NCBI RefSeq assembly: GCF_044324785.1
Contig: NZ_CP172127.1
Length of the DNA: 64,000 nucleotides
Direction: 5' to 3' (one strand)
From: Escherichia coli
GTDB taxonomy: Bacteria > Pseudomonadota > Gammaproteobacteria > Enterobacterales > Enterobacteriaceae
Shown: piece by piece, positions 62,463-64,000 of the stretch
Numbering within the stretch: the first letter of the stretch is position 1
How the letters are laid out: every line of letters begins with the position of its first letter
The notes under the pieces: model-generated
Seen by the model: the letters and a program-made list of their open reading frames with translations, nothing else
Databases searched by the model: none
Told to the model about the DNA's origin: nothing
Position numbers and translations under genes: made by a program

Positions 62463-64000
62463 ATGGCTTCAACAAATGCGCATCAAATAAAAAATAATGA
62501 TCAAAACTCTTTATGTGGTCTGGGTGACAAAATACGCCGCCTGACCGCCGGAGTTTGTTTATTTACACAAATTTTTTTCCCCGTCATGGCGACGGCACAA
62601 AATGTGGTACACGCTAAGCCTCAGACGACAGTTTCATCTCCGTCCCCTCTAATAGAAAATAATACTGTGCCTTACACGCTTGGTGCGCTGGAATCAGCGC
62701 AAAGCGTTGCTGATCGATTCGGTATTTCACTGGAGGAGCTTCGTCGTCTTAATCAGTTCCGTACTTTTGCTCGCGGCTTTGATAACGTGCGCCAGGGTGA
62801 AGAGCTGGATGTTCCGGCAACAACCTTGCAGAAAAGTCATGAGCAACAAAATGCCGTACCGCCTGCGAATGGCGAAAACACGCTGGAGAATCAAATAGCC
62901 AGCACTTCGCAGCAAGTTGGCACTCTGCTTTCACAAGATATGAATAGTGAGCAGGCCAGCGGCATGGCGCGTGGTTGGGCGTCTTCAGAAGCCTCAGGCG
63001 CGATGACTGATTGGTTAAATAACTTTGGCACTGCGAAAATCTCTCTGGGTGTGGATGAAGATTTCAGCCTGAAAAATTCGCAATTCGACTTCCTGCATCC
63101 GTGGTATGACAAACCCGATTATCTGCTCTTCAGCCAGCATACCCTTCACCGAACAGACGATCGTACCCAGATCAACACCGGTTTGGGCTGGCGTCATTTC
63201 ACCCCCAGCTGGATGTCAGGCATCAACCTGTTTTTTGACCACGACCTGAGCCGCTATCACTCCCGCGCGGGGCTTGGCGCAGAATACTGGCGTGATTATC
63301 TGAAGTTGAGCAGCAACGCTTATATCGGCCTGACCGGCTGGCGTAGCGCACCGGAATTGGATAATGACTACGAAGCCCGCCCGGCCAACGGCTGGGATTT
63401 ACGCGCGGAAGGCTGGTTACCAGCCTGGCCACAACTGGGTGGAAAACTGGTCTATGAACAATACTATGGTGATGAAGTGGCGCTGTTTGACAAGAATGAT
63501 CGCCAAAGTAATCCCCATGCTATTACCGCGGGCCTCAACTATACCCCCTTCCCGCTTCTGACTCTCAGTGCAGAACAGCGTCAGGGGAAGCAAGGTGAAA
63601 ATGACACACGTTTTGCCGTTGATCTGACCTGGCACCCCAGCAGTTCAATGCAGAAACAGCTTAACCCGGACGAAGTGGCCGGACGGCGCAGTCTGGCCGG
63701 TAGTCGTTATGACCTGATTGATCGCAACAACAACATCGTTCTGGAATATCGCAAGAAAGAGCTGATTCGCCTGAGTCTGCTGGATCCGGTGAAAGGGAAG
63801 TCTGGAGAAATAAAACCGCTGGTTTCCTCGATACAGACCAAATATGCCCTGAAAGGCTATAACATCGAAGCCGCTGCGCTGGAAGCTGCCGGAGGTAAAA
63901 TCAGCACTTCCGGAAAAGATATCACGGTCACGCTGCCAGGTTATCGCTTCACTAACACTCCAGAAACCGATAATACATGGTCGATAGACGTTACCGCCGA
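62463..64000 (+). CDS. Inverse autotransporter (intimin/invasin-family) adhesin, N-terminal part with LysM domain (partial, runs off window end)
   Basis: Hand-translated from ATG 62463: signal-like N-terminus, LysM motif (YTLGALESAQSVADRFGISLEELRRLNQFRTF...GEELDVP), then an intimin/invasin-type beta-barrel region (...GLGWRHFTPSWMSGINLFFDHDLSRYHSRAGLGAEYW...). I did not check every codon for stops. Confidence 0.65.
   Translation, partial: MASTNAHQIKNNDQNSLCGLGDKIRRLTAGVCLFTQIFFPVMATAQNVVHAKPQTTVSSPSPLIENNTVPYTLGALESAQSVADRFGISLEELRRLNQFRTFARGFDNVRQGEELDVPATTLQKSHEQQNAVPPANGENTLENQIASTSQQVGTLLSQDMNSEQASGMARGWASSEASGAMTDWLNNFGTAKISLGVDEDFSLKNSQFDFLHPWYDKPDYLLFSQHTLHRTDDRTQINTGLGWRHFTPSWMSGINLFFDHDLSRYHSRAGLGAEYWRDYLKLSSNAYIGLTGWRSAPELDNDYEARPANGWDLRAEGWLPAWPQLGGKLVYEQYYGDEVALFDKNDRQSNPHAITAGLNYTPFPLLTLSAEQRQGKQGENDTRFAVDLTWHPSSSMQKQLNPDEVAGRRSLAGSRYDLIDRNNNIVLEYRKKELIRLSLLDPVKGKSGEIKPLVSSIQTKYALKGYNIEAAALEAAGGKISTSGKDITVTLPGYRFTNTPETDNTWSIDVTA

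Follow-up and report, generated by a model that had tools for sequence, protein, structure and literature searches.

What is the long open reading frame that begins downstream of yjiJ at the right edge of this stretch of Escherichia coli DNA, and is it a foreign insertion? The stretch (the window: 64,000 nucleotides of contig NZ_CP172127.1, RefSeq assembly GCF_044324785.1) had first been read without database searches, and that sequence-only reading had proposed an inverse-autotransporter adhesin with LysM and intimin/invasin beta-domain motifs, perhaps carried on an accessory insertion. The frame is almost certainly the beginning of iatD, an accessory gene on the chromosome that encodes a type Ve surface protein of the intimin/invasin family, and this gene forms the right-hand part of a block of about 10.4 kb (an espX6-like gene, divergent yjiK and yjiJ, and iatD) that replaces the yjiK-yjiJ segment of about 2.2 kb found in K-12. 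The iatD finding is correct but ordinary, and its significance is small: a 2019 publication already covers the gene and where it lies, the family to which it belongs, how patchily it is distributed and a first phenotype, and the NCBI annotation pipeline already uses the name iatD.

Identity of the open frame downstream of yjiJ

The frame opens with the ATG at 62463-62465 on the plus strand, 210 bp beyond the end of yjiJ, and runs through 512 codons with no stop before the window ends at 64000, as the sequence-only reading had described. A GGAAGG Shine-Dalgarno sequence lies at 62452-62457, five bases 5' of the ATG. A megablast of positions 62200-64000 against 5426 complete E. coli genomes returned a full-length match in 637 of them; among the matches listed, the DNA was 99.1-99.4% identical to genes that adjoin yjiJ and are annotated "iatD: inverse autotransporter IatD". 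At the protein level, 504 of 512 amino acids (98.4%) were identical to IatD of strain SMS-3-5 (EcSMS35_4876), leaving 8 substitutions in this part of the protein; the remainder of the gene lies outside the window. The best match among the complete genomes was N3, with 99.2% identity over 20 kb. In both N3 and SMS-3-5, iatD is 5241 bp long, encodes 1746 amino acids and is followed by kptA (on the opposite strand), yjiH and yjiG.

The gene EcSMS35_4876 (5241 bp) of SMS-3-5 was named iatD by Goh et al. (2019, mSphere, PMC6714894), who reported that its orthologues keep their chromosomal position and exceed 98% amino-acid identity. The present fragment lies within this range, and its position agrees: yjiJ is the upstream neighbour, and kptA lies 3' of iatD in N3, in SMS-3-5 and in the related sequences L004 and L005. 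The upstream intergenic sequence is also identical to that of SMS-3-5, and the order of domains is the same. The same study described an architecture of LysM, barrel, Big1 repeats and a C-type-lectin cap, found a complete iatD in only 6% of 126 genomes, and overexpressed the SMS-3-5 protein in K-12, where it was localised at the surface by immunofluorescence and, in a flu mutant, led to biofilm formation, with neither autoaggregation nor binding to extracellular matrix (PMC6714894).

Could the frame instead belong to another inverse autotransporter of E. coli, such as IatC, YeeJ or FdeC? The NCBIfam model that scored highest with the fragment was indeed that of the IatC N-terminus (836 bits, aligned through residue 512), and other E. 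coli inverse autotransporters are 68-80% identical to it, those of the next tier showing 76-80% over the N-terminal 500 or so residues. That score is, however, far under the cut-off of 2400, which even the full-length orthologue fails to reach (1132 bits), and the locus adjoining yjiJ is the iatD locus. The protein search likewise fell into separate tiers, with IatD at 98%, the other E. coli proteins at 80% or less, and those of E. albertii, E. fergusonii and other Enterobacterales at 65% or less; most proteins in this search were partial, under 900 amino acids, so that the tiers have little bearing on full-length relatives. A paralogue at this site is thus effectively refuted. What IatD shares with IatC and YeeJ is the general plan of the large LysM-containing inverse autotransporters of E. 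coli, namely a presumed signal peptide, a LysM-like segment, barrel, Big_1 repeats and a lectin-like tip; the latter two are encoded at other chromosomal loci and are longer (2934 amino acids for IatC and 2359 for YeeJ, against 1746-1747 for IatD).

Domains, predicted export and upstream region

The translation contains a complete inverse-autotransporter barrel, and the passenger lies C-terminal to it, which is the inverted topology of this family. Pfam IAT_beta (PF11924) matched residues 148-423 over profile positions 2-279 of 279 (E=1.3e-109, 366 bits), and the solved beta-domains of invasin (4E1T, E=1.4e-82) and intimin (4E1S, E=1.6e-67) aligned to residues 185-430, so the beta-domain named in the sequence-only reading is borne out in full. 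The frame runs on for 82 residues beyond the end of these barrel alignments. Further NCBIfam matches were to YrIlm, Ilp, SinH, intimin and the YchO/YchP invasin, every score again below its cut-off. The passenger itself is encoded beyond the window, and its repeats were read in the full-length orthologue, which has 8-9 Big_1/Invasin_D3 stretches C-terminal to the barrel and whose last 400 residues align to the invasin ectodomain 1CWV (E=9e-22). IatD is in this way related at both ends to Yersinia invasin, and through its barrel to the intimin of enteropathogenic and enterohaemorrhagic E. coli; it differs from both in a much longer stalk of immunoglobulin (Ig)-like repeats, and no integrin or Tir binding, invasion or extracellular-matrix binding has been reported for it.

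By analogy with the family, IatD would be exported through Sec by means of its long N-terminal signal peptide. The small LysM-like segment would stay in the periplasm and may contact peptidoglycan as in relatives, while the barrel of about 280 residues would be inserted into the outer membrane with the help of the beta-barrel assembly machinery (BAM). The C-terminal passenger, coded almost wholly past the window, would then be threaded out through the barrel by hairpin export, forming a rod-shaped chain of some ten Ig-like Big_1/Invasin_D3 domains with an invasin-like module at its tip, and this lectin-like tip could bind a ligand.

Several observations weigh against the reading as an IatD surface adhesin, or narrow it. 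About 71% of iatD lies beyond the window. The putative signal peptide was assigned by eye, from a basic DKIRR followed by a hydrophobic LTAGVCLFTQIFFPVMA and then VMA, after which cleavage was guessed. The LysM motif proposed earlier stands weakly: the best natural PDB match of the segment was a LysM protein (4UZ2, E=5e-4), while Pfam LysM scored 14.9 bits, short of its cut-off of 20.9, and covered only profile positions 9-29 of 43, and we accordingly call the segment LysM-like. Designed repeat proteins (dTor), the top PDB matches to this segment, were set aside as an artefact of summed repeats. As regards native expression, a promoter scan of the yjiJ-iatD intergenic region gave one sigma-70-like site (62267-62296, 9/12 positions), no better than expected from shuffled sequence; a terminator scan 3' of yjiJ found no terminator-like site. 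The 210 bp between the two genes were without differences across five aligned strains. Finally, 'adhesin' is a label of the family. Of the earlier proposal of a surface adhesin, the surface exposure is probable, having been shown for the 98.4%-identical SMS-3-5 protein; adhesion is not among the phenotypes seen by Goh et al., who observed biofilm on overexpression.

The block that ends in iatD

In MG1655, kptA and yjiJ are transcribed towards each other, with 12 bp and no iatD between them, in agreement with the earlier expectation that K-12 would have no such gene at this site. In an alignment of the junction, K-12 homology stops at the yjiJ stop codon and resumes inside kptA, in its 3' end; the iatD-positive strains have a kptA with 10 additional codons (194 amino acids, against 184 in K-12). 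The break in homology is nevertheless not confined to iatD. It extends leftwards through yjiJ, yjiK and an espX6-like gene to about 57484, and identity drops abruptly at either edge of this block, from about 97% to about 80% (Table 1). Across the 5426 genomes the yjiK-yjiJ segment is bimodal, with 636 genomes at 95% identity or more to the window, 4746 at 80-90% and none at 90-95%. The espX6-like segment is present in 637 of these genomes, iatD in 637 and the window type of yjiK-yjiJ in 636, counts which indicate that the block acts as one co-inherited unit, carried by about 12% of the complete E. coli genomes. iatD was never found alone, always within the block. That iatD is so tightly linked to a hyper-divergent yjiK-yjiJ-espX6 block is a measured result, and the sole point that goes beyond the literature covered here.

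Table 1. Features of the iatD region in the window, with their positions and the evidence for each.
Feature	Positions	Strand	Basis or comparison with K-12
Left flank	49222-57483		about 96% identity to K-12 (BLAST)
Region of the 696-aa pentapeptide-repeat gene	57484-60169		not in K-12 (BLAST)
espX6-like pentapeptide-repeat gene, left part of the block	57818..59908	+	between ytiA and yjiK; not in K-12
yjiK (SdiA-regulated domain protein), divergent allele linked to iatD	60128..61003	+	about 80% DNA identity to K-12; coordinates of the longest open frame, annotated start in relatives slightly downstream
yjiK + yjiJ	60170-62230		80.8% identity to K-12 (BLAST)
yjiJ (major facilitator superfamily transporter), divergent allele linked to iatD	61074..62252	+	81.6% DNA and 90% amino-acid identity to K-12
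yjiJ-iatD intergenic, AT-rich, presumed iatD promoter region	62253..62462	+	34% G+C, computed
iatD, 5' part (1538 nt, 512 codons, about 29% of the gene), truncated at the window end	62463..64000	+	open frame; iatD DNA and protein identity
iatD	from 62463		not in K-12 (BLAST)
Presumed extended Sec signal peptide, aa 1-43	62463..62591	+	translation read by eye
LysM-like, presumably periplasmic segment, aa 69-118	62667..62816	+	weak Pfam LysM; PDB 4UZ2; Goh et al.
Inverse-autotransporter beta-barrel (translocation) domain, aa 148-423	62904..63731	+	Pfam PF11924; 4E1T; 4E1S
Barrel end/linker and start of the secreted passenger (first Ig-like domain), truncated	63732..64000	+	PDB alignments stop at aa 430
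Right flank	from inside kptA, measured on N3		97-98% identity to K-12

The O157 counterpart of the 696-residue pentapeptide-repeat gene is annotated as the type III secretion system (T3SS) effector EspX6. Its 3' end carries a variable run of 24-bp tandem repeats (8 residues each, KQANDSTD-like), and the product measures 657 amino acids in SMS-3-5, 696 in the window and 735 in O157. Because iatD and espX6 form one linked marker, the linkage helps to interpret patterns of presence and absence in virulence-gene surveys.

As a rival account, iatD might have arrived between yjiJ and kptA on a mobile genomic island of its own. Its absence in K-12 and in the loci examined from other Escherichia and Salmonella species would fit this, as would the AT-rich intergenic sequence upstream of it. 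The block and its flanks, however, showed no integrase, no transposase or insertion sequence, no tRNA or att site and no direct repeats at the edges; the G+C content of iatD (49-51%) is host-like rather than deviant; the break in homology does not fall at the edges of iatD; and the parts of the block are strictly co-inherited. We therefore regard a discrete island as very improbable. The extension of the break past iatD, together with the co-inheritance, is better explained by replacement of a segment through homologous recombination or by an old dimorphism than by site-specific insertion. Of the accessory insertion suggested by the sequence-only reading, the accessory character thus survives (637 of 5426 genomes), and the insertion holds in a qualified sense, since iatD is one end of a larger block and not an insertion complete in itself.

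The yjiJ alleles bear on where the block came from. The window allele is 81.6% identical to that of K-12, whereas K-12 yjiJ is 92-95% identical to those of other Escherichia species (94.7% to E. whittamii and 95.3% to Escherichia sp. E1V33 at the DNA level). 'E. coli E69' (L014) has a third allele, which shares about 85-86% identity with the window type and with the K-12 type alike, and all of these alleles are about 70% identical to those of Citrobacter and Salmonella. These comparisons come from a scan of species representatives seeded with YjiJ and followed by alignment of yjiJ DNA; in the loci examined from other Escherichia species, Salmonella and further species, which did not include E. 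albertii, E. fergusonii or E. marmotae, no iatD was found 3' of yjiJ. An open frame of 1761 codons near yjiJ in Citrobacter sedlakii was considered as an orthologue and rejected, being unrelated to IatD. Contig DXKH01000087.1 (L008), from a metagenome bin labelled Citrobacter sp., carries a yjiJ with 97.9% identity to the E. coli K-12 gene and is probably mis-binned Escherichia DNA.

Two origins of the block fit these data: it is an old dimorphism, or it was imported from an unsampled relative through homologous replacement. In a more specific and speculative form, which we hold to be doubtful, the dimorphism would be older than the species, or the import would come from an unsampled Escherichia-like lineage, and the block would stay together because a T3SS effector, an SdiA-regulated protein, a transporter and a surface protein, its four products, cooperate when a host is colonised. 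The surroundings of hsd are a classic example of exceptionally high polymorphism in E. coli, so a divergent block there would be unsurprising.

A 14-nt match between the 3' end of K-12 yjiJ and a repetitive extragenic palindromic (REP)-like element 3' of iatD was considered as the trace of a microhomology-mediated deletion. It was rejected because the K-12 stretch consists of homologous yjiJ codons (AALIS versus AALIC) and yjiJ reads on to its own stop. The REP-like palindrome between the iatD stop and kptA (L001 19551-19637, outside the window) is about 78% identical to K-12 sequence near rpnD/yjiR.

Intact and frameshifted copies of iatD, and the wider neighbourhood

Is the gene intact in the present strain? 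Relatives were found by looking for exact copies of the pentapeptide protein encoded nearby, which gave contigs with the same gene arrangement. The draft L005 (GCA_020354765.2) and the window are alike except for 1 base in 1748, and the iatD of L005 is called as a product of 1746 amino acids followed by kptA; the same intact frame of 1746 codons is present in the other closest relatives, L004, N3 and SMS-3-5. The window shows no indel against intact iatD alleles over the 1748 nt compared. A stop within or soon after the window would have spoken against the earlier proposal; the window has none, and the nearest relatives read through.

The gene might nevertheless be iatD and a pseudogene, broken past the window end. 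In the O157:H7 strain 644-PT8 (L007 11335-16576) iatD is annotated as frameshifted, with a 1-bp G insertion at nt 178 that leads to a stop at codon 66; about 552 of the 637 iatD carriers look O157-like, as judged from identity bands, and a pseudogene in O157:H7 agrees with the 6% of genomes in which Goh et al. (PMC6714894) found the gene complete. The G insertion is not present in the window, though, and with the intact relatives just described, one of them a single base away, a broken gene is unlikely here. The window seems to carry the intact, rarer form of the gene and not the frameshifted O157:H7 form. In strain 644-PT8 the kptA beside iatD is likewise annotated as frameshifted.

The apparent intactness of this copy, and the membership of iatD in a larger, strongly diverged yjiK-yjiJ block close to the hsd restriction-modification region, are modestly useful points. 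Further to the left, positions 24000-48500 hold tsr, btsT, a Na+/H+ antiporter and a type I restriction-modification system (hsdR/M), and at least 80% of this segment is covered in only 65 genomes; we take it as a variable neighbourhood of the immigration-control type. Within the left flank of the block, identity to K-12 dips to 86% at 51221-51719, near rpnD (a pseudogene in K-12), suggesting a further small divergent patch.
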